The notes beneath the pieces were generated by a model. It worked only from the letters and a program-made list of their open reading frames with translations. It was not told the origin of the DNA and did no database searches. 64,000 nucleotides of DNA from Candidatus Methanomethylophilaceae archaeon (GTDB lineage Archaea; Thermoplasmatota; Thermoplasmata; Methanomassiliicoccales; Methanomethylophilaceae): assembly GCA_944320495.1 (NCBI GenBank), contig CALUHR010000009.1, positions 1 through 64,000 of the forward strand, given 5' to 3'. Positions 18,952 to 56,718 of this stretch are shown one piece after another; position 1 is the first letter of the stretch; each line of letters starts with the position of its first letter. Position numbers and translations under genes: made by a program.

Positions 18952-19053
18952 ATGGAGTTCGACATCGGAAACTTCGTAGCGATCATCGTGGCAGGAGCCA
19001 TCTACTACGTCATCCTCGCCATCGCCAACCGCAAGAGGGCAAGTGAGCAGTGA
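18952..19053 (+). CDS. Small single-TM protein, 33 aa (not in ORF track)
   Basis: MEFDIGNFVAIIVAGAIYYVILAIANRKRASEQ; its TGA overlaps the next ATG (TGATG). Confidence 0.6.
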   Translation: MEFDIGNFVAIIVAGAIYYVILAIANRKRASEQ

Positions 19054-19451
19054 TGAACCAGCTGCCCGAGAACGTAGTGAGGATGCTCAGGCATCCCGAC
19101 ACCAACAAGGTCCTGTCTATGGTGTCGCCGGACGGCTTCCCCCACAGCATCGTGCTGGGCGCCGTCATCGTCGGTGACGACGACCGGATCTATGTCGGAG
19201 AGGTCTACATGTACCGCTCCTCCCAGTATCTCGAGGCCTGTCCCAAGGCCGAGTTCCTCGTGTGGAAGGGGAAGGAGGGATACTCCCTCAGGGTGGAGGC
19301 CGAGGGTCGCATCACCGAGGGACCGGAGTTCGATCGTCTGAGCGAGGTTCTGGGCAGGAAGAACATGCACGTCAACGCTCTATGGGTCTTCAGACCGTCC
19401 GAGGTGTGGGACGAGAGTGCCTCGTACACCTCCGGCGACAGGGTCGTGCGA
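19053..19451 (+). CDS. Pyridoxamine 5'-phosphate oxidase-like FMN-binding protein
   Basis: VLSMVSPDGFPH split-barrel motif. Ends at in-frame CGA 19449-51 overlapping the next ATG; standard-code end is 19478. Confidence 0.75.
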
Positions 19452-19675
19452 TGGACATCGCCCGCACCCGCAAACTGAGCGGGTTGCTCGCAGCCCTCTC
19501 CGCCGTATGCATATGCATCGGCGGCATACTCTTCTTCACTGGCTCGGAGGCGGCGGGGATAATCCTGATCGTCGCCTTCGTCGTTGTGCTCGTCCTGTGT
19601 CTGGGCATCAGGAGCTTCATCAGGGCCTTCGCCTTCGAGAACATGAGACGCGGTGCCGGAAAGGATCGAGAATGA
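19451..19675 (+). CDS. Small 2-TM membrane protein
   Basis: MDIARTRKLSGLLAAL... with two hydrophobic helices. Confidence 0.65.
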   Translation: MDIARTRKLSGLLAALSAVCICIGGILFFTGSEAAGIILIVAFVVVLVLCLGIRSFIRAFAFENMRRGAGKDRE

Positions 19676-24176: not shown

Positions 24177-24542
24177 TCGTTTCTCGCCCCTCTTCTCGGC
24201 TTCAATGTCGTTCAATGTACCTGGAGACACCGTCTCCAGATGTCTGTCTATGATTCCGGCGGCCTGCTCGACCAGGGCGGCGACCTCCATTCCATTCTCG
24301 GTTATGATCCACTTGCGTGCCTTGTATCCGCGGGTTCTGGCGTCGGGGTACTCGCTCCTCAAGAGCCCGCACTCCTCCAGCATGAGCAGGCGGGAGCGCG
24401 CCATGTCGTAGCTCCTGGTGATGTCATCCCTCACATCGACCTCCTTGACGGACCCGCGATGGTAGATGTATAGCAGGATCGTCGCGGCGTGCTTCTTCCC
24501 CAGCACCTGGATTCCGGTCAGCTGTTCCGTTTCCGAAGTCAC
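24177..24542 (-). CDS. Winged-helix (HxlR/MarR-like) transcriptional regulator
   Basis: VLGKKHAATILL...RLLMLEECGLL...WIITENG. In-frame CGA at 24177-79; standard TGA is 5 codons later at 24162. Confidence 0.75.
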
Positions 24543-24625: not shown

Positions 24626-24770
24626 AGTATATCATAAAACAGGCAATCGACGGCAGGTGTGCCCCTTCTGGGCGATACGCCGGATCCGTCGGCACGGTTG
24701 CAACCGGGAGCGGGAGGAGGTCCCGACGTGGCTGATCCGTTTTCTGCTCCGGGCGTGACCTGGAGGACAA

Positions 24771-27700
24771 ATGATTCAAATCGAGAAAAGGAGGATCGCC
24801 GCCGCACTCGCGGTGCTGGCGGTTGCTGTCGTGGCGATGGGAATCGTGGCGGAGGCCTCGGATTCCCAGGCCGACGACCATGTTTCCATCCCCGCCCCTC
24901 TAGCAACGGAGGTGCCCGGGCTCACCGCGATCGAAGCAGCGTTCGATGCTGATGGAGAGACCATCGACACGTCCATGTTGCCTGAGGACCTCAAAAAGTA
25001 CCTCACCGTTACAGGAACGGTCAATGAGGTGGAAGTAGAGCTGACTTCGGCGCAGTACGATGTCACTACGGATTCTGGGTTCCTGACCCCGGGGGACTGC
25101 ACAGTTACCATCTCATCAGGTGAGATCTCAGACACCGTGACCGTTGCGAATGTTCAACCAGTTGGCATCTCAAACCTGGAATTCAACACCGATGACCTCG
25201 GACAGGTCTTTGTTACCACAGATAATGAGACTGTTGGCGAGAAGGTGACAGTAACCGCTGTATTCTCCAACGGTGTGAGACAAACTCTCTCCCCGGACAT
25301 GTACACAGTTAACTTCAACAAGGATGTCGGAACACAGACGTTCAGCATCTCGGTTAACTTCAATGGAGAGAACATTCCTGGCTCCTTCACCTACGAGGTC
25401 TCTGAATTGGAGATGACTGGTCTGAGGGTCGATGTAGGGGGGAGTAGTGAATTTACAACGAGCATGAACTCGTACCGTTTGCATGATGCCCTGGCTGTTT
25501 ACGGAACATTCAACGATGGGAACGAGTACAGACTGCCTGCCTACGGATTCGACTATGAGGTTGAGGGATCCCTGCTGGCCGGCCCCACAGAGATAGAGGG
25601 TCCGTACCCAGCGACAATCACTGTAACACCCAGCGACAACGACTCCGAAGCCCAGCCCGTGGAGACGACCATCCAGGTTACTCCCGTTAAATTGGAACGT
25701 ATCAGCGCCGAAGACCAGAGGATGGGCTCTTATCAGGCGTACACGACGGTCGATAACGGCTCGGAGTGGTTCTCAGTAAGAGCATACTTCGTGGATGGGA
25801 ATTCGACAAATCTGTCAACTGGCGATTATTCAATAACATACGAGGGCGTCGGTGAAGGTGAGCCGCAAAGCTTCAGATATGGCCATGGGACCATAACCGT
25901 GCATTTCACGGAAAATGGAATAACGAAGACCGATACCATCTCGGGATACAATGTCACACGGGCTCTCGTGGAATTGCCCGATCTGAACACCGGTACGATC
26001 TCCTATGGCGACACAGCGGATTGGCTTATGACCGGCTTCGACGACAGGCTTCGGATCACCACATCTGAGGGGCTGAGTTACTCCGTGGACCCCAACGATG
26101 ATACGAGACTGCATTTCACTGCGACCGAGGCGGGGAAGTACACGGTCGTCGTGAGCCCTCTGAACGACAGCATAGTGCTTGTCCAGCGTGGTACGGACGA
26201 CCCCCTCTTGGAGGGTGAGGTGAACCAGTACACGTACACCCTGACAATCTCCGCCGCCCAGTACGACATAGAGCTCACCCTCGACGATGACATAATCGCT
26301 GGGGAGAGCGGATATCTGACGATCGAGCTGACGGGTCCGAACGGGGAGTCCGTCCCGCTACCAAGTGTGATATCGTACAGATACTCCGGGACCAACATGC
26401 TGGGGAAGCCCATCGAAGGTACGGGACTTCCGACGGATGCGGGAACATGGAATGTGTACGTGACGGTCCCTGCGAGCGGGAACTTCAGGGAGACCGGAAA
26501 ATACACCGGGGATTTCATCATAGACCGCGTGGTCCATGGAGCTCCGACACCGGTGGGCATCCCGTACGACGGGGTTGCGCATTCGGTCGAGTTCGGCACC
26601 GGCGTCGACACCTCGTTCTTCGAGGTCACGGGGGACGAGCACACCGATGTCGACGAGGGCTACGAAAGCACCCTCATCATCAGCGACGATTGCTGGAACA
26701 ACCACTGCTGGACCGGAGGCGAGAGGTCTGTAGTCGTCTATTGGAACATCGTCCAATCTCCCAATGACTTCACCGAGAAGCCATCCATCACGGGATGGGA
26801 TTTCGATGAGAGCCCCAACAGCCCTTCCGCGAAAGCGACGTTCGGCGATCAGAGCGGGATCGTATTCACGTTCTCCCAGAGCAGGGACGACGCCGATTCA
26901 TACAGGACCATGGACGAGATAGAGGTCTGGTCGGCGGGTACGTGGTACATGAAGGCCACCTCGCCAACCGATGGGCGGAACTACACTTCGGTCACATCAG
27001 AACCTCTTGAGTTCCAGATCGGCAAGATGCAGGTAGACTATCCTGCTGAGGACACCTCGACATTCGTATACACCGGCGGCACGCTGTCCTACAACCCCTT
27101 AGGATTTGATGAGTCGTTCATGACGATGACCGTCACCCAGAACGGTTCGACCTTAGAAGACGTCACGAACGCGGGGACGTACACCGTGACAGTCACCCTT
27201 GACGGGAACCATGAGTGGGACACGTCTTCGGCCCACGGGGACCTGAACGATGAAGGAGACCCGACGTTCACATGGACCGTCGGAACAGCGGAGAACACCG
27301 TCGAATCGTTCGACATATCGGGCTGGACATACGGCAGCGGCATCAACACACCCTCGAACGTCGTCATGTCGTTCAGCGATGACTACACGGTCGAGTACTC
27401 CAGAAGCCGTGATGACGGTTTCCGCCCTGCGAACGAGATAAGCTCCTGGGATGCGGGGACGTGGTACGTCCGCGTCACCTCCGGGTCATCCGACAACTAC
27501 ACCTCGGATCAACTGACTAAGAATATCGTAATCGCCAAACTCGCCGTAGACTATCCATCCGAGGACGCTAGTGACTTCGAATACACCGGCGGCACGCTGT
27601 CCTACAACCCCTCCGGATTCGATGAATCGTTCATGACGTTGACCGTCACCCAGAACGGTTCGACCTTAGAAGACGTCACGAACGCGGGGACGTACACCGT

Positions 27701-30700
27701 GACCGTCACCCTTGACGGGAACCATGAGTGGGACACGTCTTCGGCCCACGGGGACCTGAACGATGAAGGAGACCCGACGTTCACATGGACCGTCGGCAAG
27801 ATGGGGATCGATGCAGGCCTGAATCAGAGGGACTTCACGTTCAACGGAAGCCCCCAGACCCCTACGATAACCGGCGACAGCACGCAGTTCTCTGTCAAAT
27901 GGGAGAACCAGGAGTCCACAGTGATTGATTCTTACGAGGTCTATCTGACCCTCAATGACAAGACGAACTACGAATGGGACCACGATGGGGAGCAGTACGG
28001 GGACTCCGTCTCCGGAGACGTCCTCACCCTCGTGTACAGGATAGTCGGCCAGACCTACGACCTGACGATCCAGATCGGAGATGGAGGGAGCGACGTGTCC
28101 TGGACGTACGGGAACGCGCATCTGCAGGTGAGTTGGAACTCGGACATACCCACGGAGATATCCGAGAAGCTGAAGGACCAGGACGATTACGGGAGCGGTT
28201 GGTTCTACGTGTTCAACGGCATAGACGGTACCGAGTACTACGGTAAAGACTGGCCCACCGATGCGGGAAGCTACAGCGTGTACCTGTTCATATCAGACAC
28301 GGGGATCTATGCGAACAAGACGTCCAACACCGTCACGTTCTCGATCGACCCGGCCAAGATTACCGAGCACGATATCGAGGACCACGGCTGGACCTACGAC
28401 GCTCAGTCCCACTCCGTCCTTTTCGACGGTGAGGAAAACATCGTCCCAAATGCTACAACGGTCGATGGTACGACTCCGACATGGTCGTACTCCATGTCAT
28501 CCGACCCTTACGAGTGGGGTACACCATTCCAGATAACCAAGTCGGGAACCTACACCGTCTGGTACAGGGTGTCCGCAGAGAATCATGAGACCATCATCGA
28601 CAGCTTCACACTGACAGTTGGAAAGGCCGAAATCACTGGAATCGTCATACCCGGGGGAGATTGGACCTATGATGGTGAGTATCACGGTGCGATGTGGAAC
28701 GGGGAATCCGACGGAGTGCCGAGCGGCTCCGCCTTGGGGAATGACATCTCCTGGACGTACAAAACCGATGTGAACGGGGAGTTCACCGGTGAGATACCGA
28801 CATTCAGGAACGCGGGAACGCACACAGTCTACTATAGAGCGGATGCGGATAACCACGACCCTGCCTACGGGTCCTTCGAGGTCCATGTAGGGAAGAGGAC
28901 GATCGACCTCGCCTTCAGTACCAACACCAGCGTGTACTCCAACTCCGAACCGTCCGTCCAGGGATGGGACTTCGAGCTCGACGGGTCCGACGTATGCTCC
29001 GGGGACAGCCTGGACACCCTCACGAACCTGGTCGGGATCTCCCTGGAGCAGGGAGTGACCAGATGGAACGTCGGATACTACGACCTTGTCGCCACCATCT
29101 CGGACACCAACTACGAGCTTAGATACGACGGGTCCGATAAGTTCGAGATCACGAAGCGGCCGCTGTCCCTCGAGGATGCCACGATCGTCTATGGGGACGA
29201 GGCTCCTGGACTGTCCGCTATCATCGGCAACATCGCCAACGGTGACACGATCGACGATGCCGTCACCGGGACGGCCGACCTCGACGGGTACGTTCCGGGA
29301 TCCGACTATGGCCGGTATAAGATCGCTGTGGGACAGCTCGCTGCAGGCGCGAACTACTCCATCGATCCATCGGAGACTGCGACGCTCACGGTGAGCCAGC
29401 GGCAGATCACCGTGGAGATCCAGAACGACAGCAGCACCTACGGCGACGCCATAGACGCCCTAGAGGGGATCGTCATCGATGGAAACCTCGCCCTCGATCA
29501 CACCGAGACGGACGTGTTCAAGCTGTACCTCACCGACGAGGGAGACAGCGGCGAGATAGACATCTCCGTGACGGTGAACGCTGGGACCTACCACATACAT
29601 GGAACTGTGCTGAACAACAACTACGCCATCAGGTTCTTGGGCAAGTCCGACGGCGGAACGGAGCCCGCTCCGGAGTACGGGACGTACATCGTGAACCCGC
29701 GGTCGGTCACGATCGAGATCGTGACGGAGAACGGGAGCATGGACTACACCGGCGACCCAGATGCAGTGTTAGAAAAGGTATCCAGCATGTTCAGGGTCGA
29801 CAACGATCCAGATTCGAACTTCCCCGAGCCGGATTTCGTGTTCATGAAGGACGATGATGAACTGGGCCAAATCCCGACGGATGCGGGAAAGTACACCGTC
29901 AGACCGGTCTACAGCAGCAACACCAACTACGTCCCTAGCTCGGACCTGAAGGCGACGTTCACGATCAACAAGATCGACTACGACCTCCCGACCCTCGGAT
30001 GGGACGTCATGAACGATGGGAACTCCGTGAGCGTGACCGAGTACAACGGAGGGGAATACACTGCAGTCCTCTCCTCGGAGAGCACGAGGTTCACCGACGG
30101 ATCGACCGTCATCACGGGCATCGATGACTCCAGGCTGACAGTGAGCTATTCTATCGTGCACGAGGGCCCCACCGTCGGAGGGGCCGTCGATGCGGGCACC
30201 TATGTAGTGACAGCCACGTTCCATTCGGACAGCGGGAACTACAACATCCCTGAAGACATGACGTATGATCTCGAGGTCCAGCCCGCACAGGTGACCATCG
30301 TCTGGGAACCAACCGGCGACCGCTTCACATACGACGGAACCGACCAGAAGTCCGAGGTCACCGCGCACTACGTCGACGTGAAGGGGATTGATATACCTCT
30401 GACGGTGACCATCGAAGGGACGTTCGAGATCCCCAGGACGGAGGCCTACGTCTTCACGGCAGGGTTCAGCGACAGCGACACCGGGAAGGGGAACTACGCC
30501 CTCCCTGACAATCCGACCAGGAGCTACTACATGGACAGGATGCCTGTCACGATCAGCGTCTCCGACCAGAAGGTGCAGTACGGGGATCTGCTTGACGCCT
30601 CCGGATGGTCCTACGAGTTCACCGACGGAACGATACTCGAGAAGGATCTGGAGGAGGGCGGATACGTACAGCTGTACGTCGACAGGAACGTCACCGGGGA

Positions 30701-33700
30701 CAACCCCCTCCCCGCGGATCAGGCGTATGCTGATGCGATAAAGTACACGATTCAGCTGAGGAACGAGTACTACGACATCACCCCTGAGTACGGCGACCTC
30801 AAGGTCACTAAGCGCTCGATCGTGATCACGATTCCAACCATCGAACGCACGTATGATGGCCAGCCGGCAGACCTGGGAACCCTCACGGACATATAGCAGT
30901 ACGTCACAGACGGCTCGATCCTCACATCAGACAACATACTGAGCCTGACGCTATGCTACGGGGAGGGTGGCACCGGCGATGCGCCCACCGACGCCGGCAG
31001 TTACGAGGACATGGTCTGGTGCATATGGAACAACGAGCGCTACGACGTCGATGTGATCCCTGGGGACCTGGTGATCAAACCCGATTCCCTGGAAGTGACC
31101 GTAAACCCCGAGAGGCCCAGTGCCGAGTTCAACGATGAACAACAGAGTCCGAACGTGGGGTACACGGTAACTGGAACGAACAGCGGGATCAGCTTAAGCT
31201 CCGAAGTCTACACCGTAGGGTACAGGATCGGCGATGCCTGGGTGGACGAGGCCCCATCGTTCACCGATGTCGACGAGTACACCATCACCTACAAGATAAC
31301 GCCCGACAGCAACAACTACCTCCCCTACGAGGGCAGCTTCATATTCGTGATCACAGGAACGACGAACAGCTTCACGACCGAGTTCGACCAGGACGACTGG
31401 ACCTACAGGGAGGGCAAGGGAACAAGCGTGGAACCCGTCTCGAAGTTCGGAAACCCAACGGTCAGGTACTACACCGACCCGAATCACACCGAGGAGTACA
31501 CGGGAGGGATGGACAATGACACCCCTGCGGGGACGTACTACGTGGTCGTCAGCGTTCCCGCCGACGGGGACAACTATCCGGAACTGACAGGTTACTACGA
31601 GTTCACCGTCAACAGGGCGACCCTCCATTATGAGTGGGACCAGACGATGAGCATCACGTACACCGGCGATGACATCACCAACACCCTCACCGTGGACCAT
31701 TGGTCCGTGAACGGTGTCGGCGAGGCGATCGCGGTCGGCGGGACCGGGGAAAGCGTCGTCATGTACAGCAACCCCTCCGTCGACGTTACCATCGATAGCG
31801 GGAGACTGTCCATGACGGCGACGGATGTGGGCAGATACAGCGTCGTCCTGACCATAACCGATCCCAATTACATGTGGGACGGCGAGGATGCGGACACCCT
31901 CACCATCGAGACCGCATGGGAGATCGTGGAGGACCTCATGGAGAACGGCTGGACGGAGGATCCGGGGATCGACAGCATCGTCTTCGGTGAGATCCTGAGC
32001 CCGCGCGGGACTCCCGAGCATGGCACTGCAACGTACTACTTCTCGCGGTCTTCCAACCTGGAATCGTTCAACAGCACCGAGAGACCGACGCAGGCCGGAA
32101 CATACTACATGCTCGTCGTGGTCCGTGCAGTCACCGACGGAGGCGTCCATTACGAGAGGCTCGTGTCGGAACCTATCGAGTTCGAGATCCAGGTCAGGAC
32201 GATAGACGTCCCCAGCATCGTGTTCTCCACCAAGTTCTCACCAGGGGACGTGCAGACTGTCGATCTGTCCGACCTCGGAATGGACCCTGATGACCAGGCC
32301 TACGTGTCCATGAGCGGGGACAGCGGAACCTCCGCCGCCACGTACACGGCAATCCTGACCCTCACGGACAAGGTCAACTGCGCGTGGAACGTCGAAGGGG
32401 GCACTAGCACGGAGGACCAGTCCGTGCAGTGGACCATCACGCCTCTGGAGGTGGAGTTCGACACTGACGACTTCGGCAGCCACGACGATGACGCGTACTA
32501 CGACTACGACACTACCCTGAAGACGTACAACCCCAGCTTCTACGACTCCAAGTTCATGGACATCTCCGGCAACACGGGAAGGGATGCTGGCACATACACA
32601 GTCATCGTCACCCTGACATCGACCGACTACGTCTGGAAGGGCATCGAGGAGAGGTCCGTGACAGTCGGCTGGAACATCGATCCGAGAGCGCTGACGATGC
32701 CGACCCTCCGCTACGATACGATGGACGGCGCCAGCCTGGTCATCCCTTACGGGGGTTCCAGCATAACGGTGACCCTCAACGGGTTCGATGCCCAGACCAT
32801 GGGCATAGTCACCCACGGGACCACTGTCTCGTCGTCGGATGACGGCACGATATCGTCCACTGTGGGCATAGGAAGCTACAGTTTCGATATATCCCTGAAG
32901 ACCTCCAACTATGTGTGGGTCGGACAGGACGTTGACGTCAGGTCGATCCAACTCACTCTGAACGTCACGGCTAACCGCGTGGATGTGCCGGACGCGATGG
33001 AGAGCGAGTTCGAATACGACGGCGAGTCCCATTCGATCCTATTCGACGACACGTCGAACCTCATCATAGAGAACAATGTCCATACGAACGCCGGCACCTA
33101 TGTCGTCACGGTCCGTCCCGCCGAAGGATTCTACTGGCAGGACGGCACGTCCGACGCTGTCGAGTTCACTCTGACCATCGATAGAGTCACCGTCGTGATT
33201 ATGGTGGATGGGGACATAGAGGTCTGCTATGGGGAGGACATTCCCGAAATCGGATGGACCTACGCAGAGGGAAGCGACCGGTTCGTGAACGAGGATCTGA
33301 CGAACGGAACCATCGTGGTGACGATAATCCCAGGGGCCTCAAATGGAGATAATGTCGGAACATATCTGATACAAATGACGGCCGTTGCTGGCAACAACTA
33401 CATTGTCACCTGTCTGAATGGCAATCTGACAATCAATCCCGCGATAGTGGATGTGCCATCGGACATCGGGAACGTTCCCGGACTCGCCTACGACAGCGAT
33501 GGCGTCACGTTCGATCCTGCCATCCAGTGGGGTGATGAGTATGACGAGGGGACGATGTCCGTGAGCGACAACTTTGGCACCGACATCGGTGTACAGACCT
33601 CGTACCTGCACCTGAGGGATCCCATCAACCATGTCTGGAACACAGGAGCATCTGCCGACATCGAGTTCCATTGGGAGATCGTGAAGAAACCCGTGTCCAT

Positions 33701-35198
33701 CGTCATCCCAGACCAGGAGGGGTCTAATGTCCCAGGCGTGCCTGGACAGACTGTCGATCTCGGAGAGTACGAGGCGAGCGGAGAGCCTCTGGACATCGTG
33801 ATCGGAGGATTTGACAGCACCTGTATGCGTGTCGAATCGGACCCCGAGGGATGCTTCGCGATCGATCCCGTCACAGGCGTGATGACCATAACCGCCAAGG
33901 ACCTTGGGACATACACGATCCGCTTCTACCTGGTGGACGAGCACTACGAGTGGTCGTCCCCCACCAACTCCATCCTCATGACTCTCGCATCCCCGACACC
34001 AAAGGATGCTCTGATCATGACATTCACCTTCACGATTGTAGCGAATTCGGAAGGGGAGGAGTACACGGTCGAGGCGGGACACAATTCCCTCGTTTATGAC
34101 GGCGAGGAGCAGTCCTACGTACCAGATGGCTTCGACAGCGACCATATGACCCTAGGCGGGACCACGAATGCTACGATTCCAGGGACCTACACCGTGACGG
34201 TCACCCTGAAGGACCCCATCGACCGCTGGGGCTCTCTTGATGACGACGGGGATGGCACCATCTACATAACATGGACCATCACGAAGAGACCGGTCACGTT
34301 GACCGCCGAGAGTGGCAGCATGGCTCTCGGAGGAGACATGCCCGAACTGGACGTCCTCGGGACCGACGGTTTCGTCGACGATGGACTGGACGATCTCTTC
34401 ACGGTATCGTTCGACCTCGTCGACCCTGATGTCCCTGGGGAGTACACCGTCAGAGTCGAGAAGGTCGGTGACCATGCCGCCCTTGCCCACTACGACATTG
34501 AGTTCGTAGACGGTAAGATCCTCGTCATGTCGGGGGACTTCCGGGAACTCTTCGTCCTAGATGGCGTCACTGATCCGGAGACCTACAACGGTACGTACAT
34601 CACCAAGCCGATATCGTCCCCTCACCTCACTCTGGGGGAGGAGTACACCGTGACCTATGCCGACAACATAGACGTGGGGGTGGCGACCGTCACCATCACA
34701 GGATTGGGCAACTACTCCGACCAGAGCCTGTCCTTCCAGTTCGAGATCCTGAAGGCCGACCCGCCAATCAGGTTCGACCAGGAATCGGTGTCCAGATATC
34801 CCGATGACGGGTCCTTCACCAACCCCTTGGTGGTTCCCGACTATGTGGTGACCGAGGGTTCCGCTACGTACGTCAGCAGCGATCCATCCGTAGCATACGT
34901 GGACCCCGTGACCGGCCTTGTAACGACAGGTTCCGCAGGGACCGCGGTCATTACCGTGACGGTGCCGGGCACGGAGAATTACAACGATTCTACCGCCTGG
35001 TTCACGGTGATTGTCAGTAGCACCCCGATGGTCGTCATCCCTGGCGACGATGATGTCATCGTCCTTCCGGGACCCGAGACCGTGAAGTGGTATCAGAAGG
35101 ACATTTCCCTCTACATACTGCTGATCGTCATCCTCGTCGTCGGGTTCCTGCTGTACATCGTCTACACCGTGTGGAAGCGGAGGGGTGACGGGCAGTGA
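24771..35198 (+). CDS. Giant adhesin-like surface protein (Ig-like/MBG-like repeats), 3475 aa with one in-frame TAG
   Basis: Signal peptide, Big_3-like modules, many (N/D)AGTYTVTV modules, a Big_2-like module and a C-terminal TM followed by KRR. Track ORFs 24771..30896 and 31011..35198 share one frame, separated only by TAG at 30894-96. Confidence 0.85.
27033..27796 (+). repeat. Near-identical ~250-bp intragenic direct repeat
   Basis: 27033-27283 matches 27546-27796, with a 513-bp (171-codon) period. Confidence 0.9.
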
Positions 35199-35497
35199 GC
35201 GCACACGACTGCATGGCCCTGATCGACGTCCTGGGCGAGAAGCACGTGCTGGAGATGTTGCTCTTCCTCCGCGAGAACGGGACATGCAATAAGAGCCAGC
35301 TGTACAGCGCTGTCTCCCGCGGTGCACGTATGCCGGACAAGCTGGACATGATGGAGGTCGTCGGGCTCATCGTCATCGACAGCGTCGACGGCTCCAGGTG
35401 CCACCGCGTCTCCCTGACGGACCTGGGCCGGAGGGTGAGCGACTTCCTTCATGACCTGATGGATGGCGCGTCCAATCGTGACCCGGCTGTCGCCCGA
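35195..35497 (+). CDS. Winged-helix transcriptional regulator (paralog of 24177..24542)
   Basis: VLGEKHVLEMLL...VSLTDLGRRV. Ends at CGA 35495-97; the standard-code ORF runs through a hairpin to 35671. Confidence 0.75.
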
Positions 35498-38732: not shown

Positions 38733-39479
38733 ATGGAAGAGGAGCTCAAGAAAGGGGTCCAGTTCGAGGGCAAGGAGGAATACATCAAGGATGTGTTCAC
38801 CGAGATCGCGGACTACTACGACGAGATGAACGAGATCATGTCCATGCACATGGTCCAGGGCTGGCACAAGTTCATGATGCGCAAGGCCGGCGACATCGCC
38901 GGGAAGAGGTGCCTCGACGTGGGCACCGGCACCGGGGAGATCGCCTTCCATGTCGCGAGGACCGCCGGTCCCGGCTCCACGGTCATCGGCGTGGACATCA
39001 CCCCGAGGATGCTGGAGCTCGCCGCGAAGAAGGAGAAGGAGCTCGACCTGCCGGTCAAGATCGACTGGAGGGTCGGGGACGCGCTCAACCTGGACATCCC
39101 GGACGACTCCGTCGACCTGGTCACATCCGGATACATGCTCCGCAACGTCACGGACATCCAGAAGGCGGTCTGCGAGATGCACCGCGTCCTGGCGCCCGGC
39201 GGCAGGGTCGTCGTGGCCGAGCTCTCCAAGCCGAAGAACGGCGTCATCCGCTTCTTCTACAACATCTACATGAAGAGGGTCAAGAGGTACGGCCGCAAGT
39301 ACGACAAGGGCAAGTCCATCGACGGCCGCCAGTCCGCCTACGAGTGGCTGACCTCATCGATAGAGGGGTTCCCCTATGGGGAGGACATGGTCAGGATCTT
39401 CCGCAAGGCCGGGTTCGAGGACGCCAGGTTCTATGTCAAGTCCTTCGGCGCCGTCAACATCTACGTGGGGACGAAATGA
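38733..39479 (+). CDS. ubiE: UbiE/MenG family quinone C-methyltransferase
   Basis: VFTEIADYYDEMN, LDVGTGTGE, GDALNL, GYMLRNVTD and YEWLTSSI. Confidence 0.8.
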   Translation: MEEELKKGVQFEGKEEYIKDVFTEIADYYDEMNEIMSMHMVQGWHKFMMRKAGDIAGKRCLDVGTGTGEIAFHVARTAGPGSTVIGVDITPRMLELAAKKEKELDLPVKIDWRVGDALNLDIPDDSVDLVTSGYMLRNVTDIQKAVCEMHRVLAPGGRVVVAELSKPKNGVIRFFYNIYMKRVKRYGRKYDKGKSIDGRQSAYEWLTSSIEGFPYGEDMVRIFRKAGFEDARFYVKSFGAVNIYVGTK

Positions 39480-40111
39480 GGGAGTACAACCTCTACCTCT
39501 TCGACTTCGACAACACCCTGTACGACACGAGCGCCGGCATCCACAGGATCCTCGAGGAGGTCCTGCCGGTCATCGGCGTGGATTACCGCAGGGAGGAGTT
39601 CACTAGGTACCTCGGGATGTCCATGGATGACATCTTCGACACGTATTCGAAGCGTCCGGACGCGTACGACGAGTATCGCTCCAGGTTCTACGATGCGGTG
39701 GCCACGAACTCCTACAGGGAGTCGGAGCCGTTCCCCGAGACGCTCCGCGTCCTGAGGGCCCTCAAGGACAGGGGCAAGCGCATCGGTATAGTGTCGGGGA
39801 AGATGCGCTACAAGATCGTGGACCTTCTGGAGGACCAGGGGCTCGGGGACATCCCCGAGACAATCGTGGGGTGGGACGACACCGACGCCCACAAGCCCGA
39901 CCCCGAACCGGTGGCGCTCGCGTTCTCGAGGTTCGACGTCCCCCGCGACAGGACGCTCTTCGTCGGCGACAGCTACAACGACGCCGGGGCTGCCAACGCC
40001 TTCGGTGTGGACTGCGCCATAGTCAAGCGTCCCGACGGATTCATGGCCGAGGACCTGCCCTGCAGGTACGAGATCCCCAGCCTGGAGGATCTGCTGGTCT
40101 GGGACGAGCGA
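39476..40111 (+). CDS. HAD-superfamily hydrolase (PGPase-like)
   Basis: FDFDNTL, HKPDPEP and FVGDS. Ends at CGA 40109-11; standard TGA is at 40132. Confidence 0.85.
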
Positions 40112-41185
40112 TCGCAGCATCCCCTGGGATGACAGCCTCATCAGCAGGTCCCGGGCCTCGCATATGCCGGACTCGGCGGACGCAGTGAGCAATCTTATCG
40201 CATCCCTGTCCGGCATCTCGATGCGTCCGGACAGTGCCAGGGCGCCGAGGTTGTACATGGCCGTCGGTTCTCCGGCATCCGATGCGCTCCTCAGCAGCGT
40301 CTCCGCACGTTCGATATCCCTGTCGATGAGCATGGATCCGAGCATCGACTGGGCGTAGACGAACCCGGCGTCGGAGGCCATCTCCATCCATTCCATCGCC
40401 TTGTTCTCGTCCCTCTCGCCGAGCGAACCGTCCATGAGCATCAGCGCGAGGTTGTACATCGCCTTGACGTCGCCGTCCAGTGCAGCATCTGTGAAGTATC
40501 CCTCCGCCTCCGCGAACTCACCGCGCTCGTAGAGGATCCCTCCGATGCACAGGCGGGCGTCGTTGTCACCCTGGTCCGCAGATGCGCGGAACCATCTCTC
40601 GGCCTCCTCGCGGTCGACGGGTATGCCGTCACCCGCGTCCAGCATCATGGCGAGATCGTACTGGGAGTCCGGGTCGCCCGCCTCGGCGGCCCTTCTATAG
40701 AGCTCCGCCGCGCGCGGCTTGTCCGGGAAGACGCCCTCGCCGGTGCGCAGGATATGGGCCAATATGCCGGCGGCCTCGGTGCTGGTGGACGCAGCCCTCT
40801 CGAGCCACATGACGGCCCTCTCCGGATTCGCCGCCACCCCGTTCCCTCCGCGGAGCATCGTCGCGGCGTTGATCATGCCCTTCTCGTATCCCGCCTCCGC
40901 GGCCCTCTCGAAGAGGGCGAGAGTCCGAGCGGGGTCGATGCCCATCATGATGCTCCCGAGGTTGCACATGGCCTTCGTGTTCCCGAGGTCGGATGCGCGC
41001 TTGAGGTACTCCGCGGCGGTGACCGTGTCCTGGGGGACGCCCTCGCCGACGATGTACATGTAGCCGAGCGACGACGACGCGTCCGCATCGCCCAGGTCCG
41101 AGGCCTGCCTGTACAGCTCGGCCGCCCTGCCGGGGTCCTGTTCGCGGACCTCGTCGCCCATCTTCCTGATCTCGGAGGCTTCCAT
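40112..41185 (-). CDS. Sel1-like repeat protein
   Basis: About nine SLR units (A..GD..A...LG.MY..G.G). Ends at CGA (40112-14); the standard-code ORF runs about 217 codons antisense through the HAD gene to 39461. Confidence 0.85.
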
Positions 41186-41587: not shown

Positions 41588-41866
41588 TTGGACCGTCGCG
41601 ACCTGGTGTTCGTGATCCTGGTGGTCCTGGTCGGGGTGTCCGCCCTTTCGGTCATAGCCTACATGCTGTGGCCCGAGGGGTCCATGCCCTTCCCGTTCGG
41701 ATTCCTCCCCTTCATCTTCCTGTTCTTCCCGATCATTATACCGCTGAGCTGGAGGGGCAAAGGGAGCGCGAGGGTCGAGGACCCTGACGACTACTGTCCC
41801 GGATGCGGATGTCCGCTCGATCCGGAGTACGACTTCTGCACCGTATGTGGCCGGAGAATACGCCGA
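41588..41866 (+). CDS. 2-TM membrane protein with C-terminal zinc ribbon (copy 2)
   Basis: TTG start; YCPGCG-x9-CTVCGRRI. Ends at CGA 41864-66 overlapping the next ATG; standard end is 41908. Confidence 0.7.
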
Positions 41867-48093: not shown

Positions 48094-48510
48094 TCGGGCC
48101 CTCTCGGAGACGATCTCGTTGGACGTCACGATGTTGAGGCGCGGGCAGTCGGCGCAGATGCCGAGGTCCCCGCTGTATCCCTCGAAGACGTACAGCGCCT
48201 TCAGCAGGCCGCTCTCCTTCACGAAGTTGCAGATTCCGCAGAGCGACTCGGTGACGTCCGCTCCGTTGGAGATCTCGTCGGCCATCCTGGCTATCTCGGC
48301 GTAGAAGTCGTCCTTGTAGGCGCTGCGGTCGATCAGGTTGTTCCCGCCCCGCATGCCCTTGAGGTACTGGGACACCGCTGCGCTTGTGACGCCGAAGAGC
48401 TTGGCCACCTGTGTCTGGGTCATGCCGTGGCTGGTCACCAGGTCCCTGGCGAGCGCTCCGCGCGCTGTGGGCAGAATGTGTGTGACTATGAGCTCGCACG
48501 GCATCTTCAT
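48094..48510 (-). CDS. HTH transcriptional regulator (COG2522-like)
   Basis: PCE, MTQTQVAKLFGVTSAAVSQY and C-terminal CxxC motifs. Ends at CGA (48094-96); the standard TAA at 48067 is part of the hisB TATA box. Confidence 0.8.
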
Positions 48511-55880: not shown

Positions 55881-56040
55881 TGTAGGTCGAGGGGATGCTG
55901 GGCCATTGGCGGACCCCGAACGCACTCCAATGGCAACGACCTCCATGCAGGCGTGCGCGTGCTTTCCGTTATTGGCGTCCAGATCCTCGAGATCGTCTGG
56001 GCAGTCTCCGATTTATACCATGCACACCACTCCGCCCTCC

Positions 56041-56718
56041 ATGGACAGGGACGAGGTCCAGAGGGTCAAGACCAAGCCGACGCTGGCTGATTTCGCCGAG
56101 ATGACCCTCGCCGTCTTCATAATGGCTCTGGGCGTCATCATCACCGTCAGGTCCCTCCAGGGCGTCTCCCCGGTGTCGTCCCTCACATACGTCCTCAGCC
56201 AGGTCGCCGACGTCTCACTGGGGACGATGACGTTCATCGTCTACTTCGTGTTCGTCCTGTTCCAGTGCGCCGTCTACAGGGACAGGGGTATGACCATCAG
56301 GGTCTTCAGCCAGCTGCCGTACACGATCCTGTACAGCGTCTGCATGGATGTGCTCGATTACGCGCTCGCGCCGCTCAGCGCGGAGACGCTGGCGGGCCAG
56401 TGGGGGCTCGTCCTGATCGGATGCATGCTCACCAGCCTGGCCATCGCCATGGAGGCGGACGCGAACGTGTCGATGCTCCCGGACGACGGTCTGATGCTCG
56501 CGGTCCACAGGGCCACGAAGATCCCCCTCGGCAGGAGTATCATCGTCGTGAACATTGTGTCCATAGCGGCGGCCTTCGCCATCTCCCTGGGTGTCCTGGG
56601 AGGATTCTACGGGGTCGGTCTGGGAACGATATTCATGGCCATCGCCCAGGGGTACATAGTCAAGGCGATGACGCCGATGTTCAGAAGGTTCCGCAAGCAC
56701 GGCCATCTGGATCTCCGA
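56041..56718 (+). CDS. YczE/YitT-like membrane protein
   Basis: GVSPVSSL and GLGTIFMAIAQG in a multi-TM protein; TTTATA lies upstream. Ends at CGA 56716-18; the standard-code ORF runs antisense through hisA to 57663. Confidence 0.75.

Follow-up and report, generated by a model that had tools for sequence, protein, structure and literature searches.

The window analyzed here is the 64,000-nucleotide stretch at positions 1-64,000 of contig CALUHR010000009.1 (C9:1-64000), part of assembly GCA_944320495.1 of Candidatus Methanomethylophilaceae archaeon. Close to position 40,111, two convergent genes, one for a HAD-family hydrolase and one for a Sel1-repeat protein, meet back to back, and each runs up to the junction in frame with the codon CGA. 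Our analysis concerns the role of CGA at this site, in the rest of the genome and in related archaea. The genome under study is called G000; other G numbers stand for the genomes of relatives, and g numbers for genera.

The convergent gene pair at CGATCG

The following features lie at the site.

39476..40111, plus strand: HAD-family hydrolase gene, 211 codons plus CGA (Pfam HAD_2, E 1.3e-34; coding score 0.93)
40109..40111, plus strand: CGA predicted to terminate the HAD hydrolase gene (from sequence and ortholog ends)
40130..40132, plus strand: TGA, the first standard stop after the HAD CGA, 6 codons on and a possible back-up; CGA in G018
40112..41185, minus strand: Sel1-repeat protein gene, 357 codons plus CGA (Pfam Sel1, E 2.2e-52; coding score 0.66)
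40112..40114, minus strand: CGA predicted to terminate the Sel1-repeat gene (from sequence and ortholog ends)
39464..40111, minus strand: 216 open codons after the Sel1 CGA, codon-aligned and antisense to the HAD gene, noncoding (no Pfam family match)

On the plus strand, positions 40100-40111 read TGG GAC GAG CGA. On the minus strand, the reverse complement of 40112-40120 reads ATG CTG CGA. The hexamer CGATCG at 40109-40114 consists of two abutting CGAs, one per strand, each in frame with one of the two genes, exactly as the initial annotation had read it. Both gene products are recognizable. The HAD product matches HAD_2 with 120.3 bits (cut-off 23.8) over residues 8-183 and Hydrolase with 91.1 bits, which places it in the HAD superfamily. 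The Sel1 product reaches 174 bits against Pfam Sel1 (cut-off 30.7) in five stretches and belongs to the Sel1-repeat proteins.

The initial annotation also pointed out that the Sel1 protein would gain about 217 antisense codons if CGA were read as sense. This is correct: under translation table 11 the frame stays open for 217 codons beyond CGA, to position 39461, codon-aligned and antisense to the HAD gene, and a Pfam search of this extension gave no family match. The long open frame is by itself unsurprising, given the high GC content at third codon positions (GC3, about 0.85-0.9). Codon-aligned antisense frames stay open because a GC3 of about 0.9 leaves few stops, all of which begin with T. 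Genome-wide there are 939 antisense open reading frames (ORFs) of at least 250 codons, compared to 986 sense ones.

The gene ends of orthologs are more informative. Among 15 HAD loci of the same genus, 12 have a standard stop at about the same place, typically after ...SL.ELL(DW) (e.g., ...SLSELLDW, then TGA), and in the remaining three (G018, G013, and G010) CGA comes first. Sel1 orthologs converge on the HAD gene in 13 of the 15 loci, and 12 of these 13 could be resolved. Every one of these genes stops no more than 3 codons from the CGA of G000, eight of them on TGA and four on CGA (G018, G004, G001, and G003), and none carries the long extension. The ends read ...QGML or ...QGLI, with TGA following directly in G013, G009, and G011 and standing 2-3 codons earlier in five genomes. 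Written on the HAD strand, the junction is TGA-TCA in G009, CGA-TCA in G013, and CGA-TCG in G000 and G018. Hence, the likeness to a TGATCA double stop, which had been noticed from the letters of G000 alone, is borne out by a relative that has this double stop and by another that is intermediate.

The letters themselves are well supported. Contigs from two public runs, which belong to two studies and one of which is possibly the source sample, are identical over 40034-40142, and G018, an independent assembly that is 96% identical, carries the same CGATCG. An RNA contig of a related strain (run X17) covers 39997-40292 with 23 differences.

CGA at gene ends in the genome and its relatives

The G000 assembly comprises 1,768,794 bases in 14 contigs and has a GC content of about 61.5%. 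Counted in any frame, CGA is a common trinucleotide there, with 97,784 occurrences or 1.52 times the expectation. We scored coding potential by codon log-odds trained on strongly periodic ORFs, in which CGA and the three stops were scored neutral. Only nine CGAs are flanked by 40 well-scoring codons on both sides, compared to 584 CGG, 514 CCA, 579 TCA, and 373 CTA. For the standard stops the same test gives 59 (TGA), 12 (TAA), and 86 (TAG). With stricter thresholds, CGA has 5 internal sites and stands at 127 transitions from coding to open-but-noncoding sequence, TGA has 46 and 323, and all sense codons together have 332,405 and 2,728. By these counts, CGA is kept out of coding sequence and marks the transition from coding to noncoding sequence in the same proportions as TGA. 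Its absence from conserved sense positions is what one would expect of a codon reassigned from sense to stop. A plain codon table of stop-to-stop ORFs gives a misleading value (4.4 CGAs per thousand), which stems from noncoding tails and leaders, and was set aside.

A simple gene caller that allows four stops yields 1611 confident genes, which take up 82% of the genome. The terminal codon is TGA in 1110, CGA in 367, TAG in 82, and TAA in 52. Reading on from a CGA end, one meets a standard stop after a median of 26 codons and at most 736. If CGA is read through, the pairwise overlap between gene models grows from 25.9 kb to 107.3 kb. The arrangement of our convergent pair is not unique either. 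Among 277 convergent neighboring pairs 25 abut exactly, and 24 of the 25 involve CGA, 10 of them on both sides. Back-to-back CGA ends are beyond chance.

Two details of these ends may be added. Exact abutment as TGA-TCA is found in 1 of the 25 pairs, and CGA-TCG and CGA-TCA automatically satisfy the preference for T after CGA that is described below. As for TAG, the 82 confident genes ending on it are short and score poorly. The 86 internal TAGs fit a use of the codon for pyrrolysine or for read-through in Methanomassiliicoccales.

Ortholog ends provide a test that is independent of the coding score. In 400 kb of G046 we found orthologs of 51 CGA-ended G000 genes. In 29 cases their stop and the CGA share one aligned codon; the distance is at most 3 codons in 44 and at most 10 in 49. 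The stop codons of these orthologs are 45 TGA, 2 TAA, and 4 CGA. Among 178 TGA-ended genes taken as controls, the corresponding numbers are 114, 162, and 177. In 200-kb samples of other genomes, the stop falls within 3 codons in 17 of 22 (G008), 19 of 23 (G047), 19 of 22 (G090), and 18 of 22 cases (G113). The comparison shows that CGA occupies the stop position of its orthologs, as a reassigned codon should: it stands where they have a standard stop.

How far does this pattern extend? We ran tblastn with confident G000 proteins on 20-kb samples of the relatives. In 39 of 40 other genomes of the genus, aligned coding sequence contains 0-3 CGAs per 1.9-12.7 thousand codons. The exception is G055 with 6 CGAs, none of which is aligned to arginine. 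Sister genera of the same family (g10-g14) have 1-2 CGAs per sample. Samples of genus g15 and of six further families of the order, where CGA is in normal use, contain 4-39, and arginine is the residue most frequently aligned to them. Individual genomes gave the following counts.

G113 (normal-code genus g15, same family): CGA 47 in 34,423 aligned codons, 24 on Arg; genes ending first on CGA 0/106
G090 (sister genus): CGA 1 in 35,510 aligned codons; genes ending first on CGA 1/99, doubtful
G008 (same genus): CGA 1 in 38,222 aligned codons; genes ending first on CGA 3/109
G046 (same genus): CGA 1 in 79,269 aligned codons; genes ending first on CGA 10/247
G000: genes ending first on CGA 367/1611
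G047: genes ending first on CGA 41/126

Taken together, the comparison of sequences shows that CGA serves as a gene end in this gut methanogen and its genus, in G000 for about a quarter of the genes. Avoidance of CGA and its use as a terminator are separable, since the sister genera avoid the codon and hardly terminate on it. We also tried to define frames in the relatives by an all-against-all tblastn of stop-to-stop ORFs. Under this procedure G000 itself showed 67-194 in-frame CGAs and 7-16 in-frame TGAs. The procedure is unfit because a GC3 near 0.9 leaves antisense frames open, and these are conserved as well; it was replaced by queries limited to confident G000 genes.

Nine gene models of the window end on CGA, including the HAD and Sel1 genes. 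The other seven are listed here.

19050..19451, plus strand: PNPOx-like gene (below the Pfam cut-off), ends on CGA (gene model and Pfam)
19451..19669, plus strand: gene model, ends on CGA (coding score)
24177..24506, minus strand: gene model, ends on CGA (coding score)
35195..35497, plus strand: gene model, ends on CGA, 58 codons to the next standard stop (coding score)
41588..41866, plus strand: zinc-ribbon protein gene, ends on CGA (Pfam match up to residue 89-90 of 92)
48094..48510, minus strand: HTH protein gene, ends on CGA (gene model and Pfam)
56020..56718, plus strand: DUF6198 protein gene, ends on CGA, 315 codons to the next standard stop (match over residues 27-218 of 232 codons before CGA)

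The first two of these (19050-19669, plus strand) are successive small genes, and the CGA of the first overlaps the start of the second as CGATG. Genome-wide, 73 of 311 CGA ends stand in this context, compared to 74 of 1004 TGA ends in TGATG, an excess that hints at a coupling of termination and reinitiation. Elsewhere in the window (24759-35198, plus strand) lie two adjoining giant ORFs of 2045 and 1433 codons with MBG and Ig-like domains, which look adhesin-like. Their GC content is 0.56-0.58 in surroundings of about 0.60-0.64, and they contain no CGA at all.

Release factor, tRNA-Arg(UCG) and proposed leaky termination

G000 has a single gene for the release factor aRF1 (C2:85942-87174, minus strand), whose product is 91% identical to that of the closest named relative, Candidatus Methanoprimaticola sp. 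MG2. Codon 81 of this gene is a CGA (...NIKSKTTMKNVQSAIDSIAA[CGA]LKTYK), and the genome has very few others inside genes. The column is Arg or Lys in all 15 other sequences compared, and the frame continues in phase for 332-333 codons beyond it. A full-length aRF1 requires read-through, because the NIKS motif lies upstream of the CGA; and because the frame continues, any bypass of the codon must be read-through.

The position of this codon is strongly conserved. Of 41 genomes of the genus, 38 have CGA as codon 81, while neighboring synonymous sites vary. The exceptions are G047 (CGC), G060 (AGA), and G005 (AAG), and the latter two have a single CGA at codon 14 or 28 of aRF1 instead. In the CGA-poor sister genera, too, aRF1 contains a single CGA, at codon 28 in five genomes and at codon 14 in one. 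Relatives and outgroups with the normal code have 0-5 CGAs scattered through the gene. In several samples, the CGA of aRF1 is the only one among thousands of aligned codons.

This arrangement is reminiscent of bacterial prfB, the gene for RF2, which carries an early in-frame UGA that is bypassed by a +1 frameshift and regulates its own expression. If aRF1 reads CGA, then an early, conserved, in-frame CGA in its own gene is what autoregulation of the prfB type calls for. No frameshift as in prfB is needed, as the aRF1 frame stays in phase. By analogy, we infer that the CGA of aRF1 acts as a feedback sensor, similar to that of prfB and operated by read-through.

Within the protein, position 122 (PIT-A-FLYRCDS), next to YxCxxxF, is, among the columns that separate the genus from CGA-using relatives, the one closest to a decoding motif. 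Ala occupies it in 41 of 41 genomes of the genus and in 5 of 6 from sister genera, and all 14 others have Ser or Thr. Ala122 is a candidate, and nothing more, for a change linked to the recognition of CGA. In the RGRSTEL motif G000 has Ser for a Gly that is found in all 15 other sequences compared.

CGA does not appear to be a strong stop. The codon-adaptation score of CGA-ended genes is 0.729, compared to 0.851 (Mann-Whitney p 3e-28), and only 11 of the 160 best-adapted genes end on CGA, compared to 23% overall. A standard stop follows within 10 codons after 115 of 367 CGA ends, compared to 251 of 1110 TGA ends (Fisher p 0.001). T follows CGA in 56% of cases, compared to 29% for TGA, and A follows it in 7% (chi-square p 3e-22). 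The conserved CGAs that would have to be read through (in aRF1 and between gmhA and gmhB) are followed by C or G. A T following CGA probably favors termination.

The second of these read-through sites lies at C13:193621-194700 (minus strand; loci L322-L357), where a GmhA-like gene with a SIS domain and a GmhB-like gene of the HAD type share one frame. They are joined as ...LFG(S/N/Q) CGA AVFIDRD..., and there is no start codon between them. Across 36 genomes the junction codon is CGA in 32, TAG in three (G047, G052, and G017), and AGA in one (G016). The alternation with TAG at a conserved domain junction suggests that CGA is used as a leaky stop here, and GmhA-GmhB is probably a programmed read-through fusion. 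The AGA variant fits arginine as the residue inserted during read-through. A third locus (C5:177965-179086, plus strand; L321) has an in-frame CGA followed by CTG, as in aRF1, with a hydrophobic, helix-like stretch downstream and no Pfam family match. Read-through there might produce a form with a membrane anchor.

ARAGORN finds tRNA-Arg genes in G000 for all five anticodons expected of an archaeon, with UCG at C13:413317-413390. Of 62 genomes of the genus, 48 yielded a tRNA-Arg(UCG) gene. The patterns used find none in the other 14, two complete ones included, and these patterns miss intron-bearing genes. A looser pattern gave candidates in G008, G015, G047, G019, and G005, which ARAGORN leaves uncalled or calls tRNA-Pro(CGG). 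Stems of tRNA-Arg(UCG) change by compensatory pairs, which argues that the gene is under selection. Pair 31-39 of the anticodon stem behaves differently. Every one of the 57 loci read from the genus (40 genomes) has a mismatch there, A.A, C.A, or U.C, and keeps the remaining four pairs of this stem intact. By contrast, each of the 18 loci outside the genus, which come from sister genera and other families, has a C-G or U-A pair. The four-pair anticodon stem is specific to the genus and coincides with the rise of CGA gene ends. The broken pair may weaken tRNA-Arg(UCG) in its competition with aRF1. Together with the CGAs in aRF1 and between gmhA and gmhB, the retained but altered tRNA suggests a leaky stop that is read by both aRF1 and tRNA-Arg(UCG).

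G047 may have gone furthest. CGA ends are most frequent in it, its aRF1 gene lacks the CGA, its gmhA-gmhB junction reads TAG, and the patterns used gave no match for tRNA(UCG). The reassignment may have been completed in this genome; with an assembly that is only 87% complete, however, the tRNA gene may lie in the missing part.

Competing explanations and known systems

The explanation that accounts best for the whole is, we think with considerable confidence, that CGA is a fourth termination codon and not an ordinary arginine codon. That CGA marks gene ends is shown by several lines of sequence evidence that are independent of each other; its reading by aRF1 and its leakiness would be a further, inferred step. 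The HAD and Sel1 genes would then end back to back on CGA at an ancestral TGATCA site. aRF1 itself would read CGA, which is one transition away from UGA, and the retained tRNA-Arg(UCG), weakened by its broken 31-39 pair, would compete with it and make the stop leaky. Plentiful aRF1 would terminate at the early CGA of its own gene, so that less aRF1 is made, and the CGA between gmhA and gmhB would give rise to the read-through fusion. Recognition by aRF1, leakiness, autoregulation, and GmhA-GmhB read-through would thus form a coherent mechanism.

Several observations weigh against this reading. Termination at CGA is deduced from DNA alone. The aRF1 motifs NIKS, GT(E/S), and YxCxxxF show no change themselves, and Ala122 is the sole change nearby that is linked to the clade. 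Selection on the retained tRNA(UCG) means that CGA can probably still be read as arginine. In the sister genera CGA is avoided and the aRF1 CGA is present, yet almost no gene ends on CGA. A few internal CGAs persist in G000, and G047 has 8 CGAs inside alignments. At C8:55277-55840 (plus strand; L320), a Flavodoxin_4 domain (Pfam E 5e-23, residues 44-185) spans an in-frame CGA, with CCC next; this is either a read-through gene or a truncated gene. A reservation applies to our site as well. The initial annotation had taken it that both strands independently place CGA at the gene end. This holds for Sel1 and is supported genome-wide, but the HAD gene on its own does not need a CGA stop, since it has a TGA 6 codons on; yet that TGA is CGA in G018.

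One could also argue that CGA is not a stop at all but an unassigned or "hungry" codon. Translation would stall there for lack of an efficient tRNA and be ended by rescue or by slow near-cognate release, and gene ends would drift onto a tolerated stall codon. The broken 31-39 pair and the 14 of 62 genomes in which the pattern used finds no tRNA(UCG) would suit this idea, and so would the unchanged decoding motifs of aRF1 and the sister genera that avoid CGA without ending genes on it. Yeast eRF1 is also reported to act on rare CGA codons, in the text available of that study (PMC7379694). It would be costly, however, to place a quarter to a third of all genes on stall sites (367/1611 in G000, 41/126 in G047), and a GGQ factor would still be needed for peptide release. 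The conserved CGA in aRF1 and the exchange of CGA and TAG at gmhA-gmhB indicate that the cell treats the codon as a stop. We consider the hungry codon unlikely, though it is the most serious of the rivals.

The remaining explanations fare much worse. Under the standard code, CGA would always mean arginine, and the long C-terminal extensions that overlap neighboring genes would be real. The frames are indeed open and a tRNA(UCG) gene exists. But the coding signal stops at CGA, orthologs carry TGA or TAA at that very codon, the extensions run antisense to known genes without matching any family, CGA is nearly missing from about 80,000 aligned codons of G046, and it would be hard to say why the loss of a stop should always yield CGA. 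We regard this as very improbable. C-to-U editing of mRNA, which would turn in-frame CGA into UGA, draws on the single transition between the two codons and seems to us just as improbable. Out-of-frame CGAs are abundant, so that general editing would rewrite many serine and other codons, and we know of no machinery in archaea for frame-specific editing at about 370 sites. Editing would also leave the aRF1 CGA at a conserved arginine unexplained. Least credible of all is an artefact of sequencing or assembly, such as a miscalled T in a methylated GATC context. It is true that our site contains GATC and that CGATC is the commonest context of CGA ends (84 of 311). But errors are blind to reading frame, and the same codons appear in independent assemblies (G018, G013, and others) and in the contigs of two studies. 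TGATC stops are common too (139) and CGA ends occur in many other contexts, and on these grounds a base-calling artefact linked to GATC was rejected.

We therefore return to CGA as a fourth stop and extend it, with slightly more belief than doubt, to a fuller scenario. The genus (62 genomes), and probably its sister genera in a weaker form, would use a four-stop code in which CGA is a leaky terminator, contested by aRF1 and a deliberately weakened tRNA-Arg(UCG). The early CGA in aRF1 would gauge the termination capacity of the cell, and CGA and TAG would be interchangeable in programmed read-through fusions such as GmhA-GmhB. A sense-to-stop reassignment would thus be seen in a cellular genome for the first time, and at graded stages, with 3% to 33% of genes affected.

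If this is true, then about a quarter of G000 proteins carry false C-terminal tails under table 11, some of them hundreds of residues long, and genes beneath these tails may be missed. The same would apply to 3-33% of genes across a genus that is common in animal guts. The relatives would form a graded series from normal use of CGA, through avoidance with a sensor in aRF1, to a broken tRNA stem with rising use as a terminator. Such a series would be an unusually complete view of a codon changing its meaning, and would show release-factor feedback and a near-cognate stop at work in nature.

Codes in which a sense codon became a stop are known from organelles: AGA and AGG in vertebrate mitochondria (NCBI table 2), TCA in mitochondria of Scenedesmus (table 22), and TTA in those of Thraustochytrium (table 23). 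To our knowledge, every code change known in bacteria and archaea assigns a new amino acid to a stop or sense codon, and sense-to-stop changes are known only from mitochondria. A stop role of CGA would be the first such change outside organelles. As in the organelle codes, an amino-acid codon (in vertebrates also an arginine codon) has gone from coding sequence and is placed at gene ends. Unlike the tiny organelle genomes with their handful of genes, we are dealing with a free-living cell with a 1.8-Mb genome and about 370 such ends. This cell has retained the gene of the cognate tRNA, and the codon occurs in its release-factor gene.

We found nothing in the literature on CGA as a stop in Methanomassiliicoccales or Methanomethylophilaceae, though supplements of two code-screen papers may list CGA as uninferred. 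In the text available, the 2021 Codetta screen reports no change of a sense codon in archaea, leaves 218 archaeal sense codons uninferred, and has no mention of Methanomassiliicoccales; from what is accessible of both, Codetta and KACI leave sense-to-stop codons uninferred. The closest case is a preprint on Njordarchaeales (bioRxiv 10.64898/2026.04.02.715157). According to its accessible parts, two assemblies have no CGA in recognizable domains and a stop role is raised as a possibility, but the method cannot infer stops and the question is left open. That lineage belongs to another phylum-level group, has about 50% GC, reads CGG as tryptophan, and had no tRNA(UCG) found, as far as those parts go. 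In the archaea studied here, CGG still behaves as sense, and the analysis covered gene ends and the stops of orthologs as well as aRF1 and the tRNA.

The likeness to prfB is a release-factor gene with an early in-frame codon that the factor is thought to read, so that plentiful factor cuts its own synthesis. The difference is that prfB relies on a +1 frameshift, whereas the CGA in aRF1 would be bypassed by read-through, presumably by tRNA-Arg(UCG), provided that aRF1 recognizes CGA at all. Such recognition is plausible because the yeast factors eRF1/eRF3 are reported, in the available portion of the paper, to act on rare CGA codons (PMC7379694). There, a factor of the eukaryotic and archaeal type treats CGA as a near-cognate of UGA, which, as the available portion describes it, is misdecoding at a rare sense codon and not a normal gene end.

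Finally, some stops have two meanings. TAG is both a stop and a pyrrolysine codon in Methanomassiliicoccales, and stops depend on their context in Condylostoma and Blastocrithidia. A tRNA-Trp with a 4-bp anticodon stem reads UGA, according to the accessible text of one study (PMC13092985). CGA would resemble these cases in that one codon is read by a release factor and by a tRNA, that a tRNA with a four-pair anticodon stem is involved, and that CGA and TAG are exchanged at gmhA-gmhB. In the known cases, however, a stop gained a sense meaning. Here, a sense codon would have gained a stop reading.

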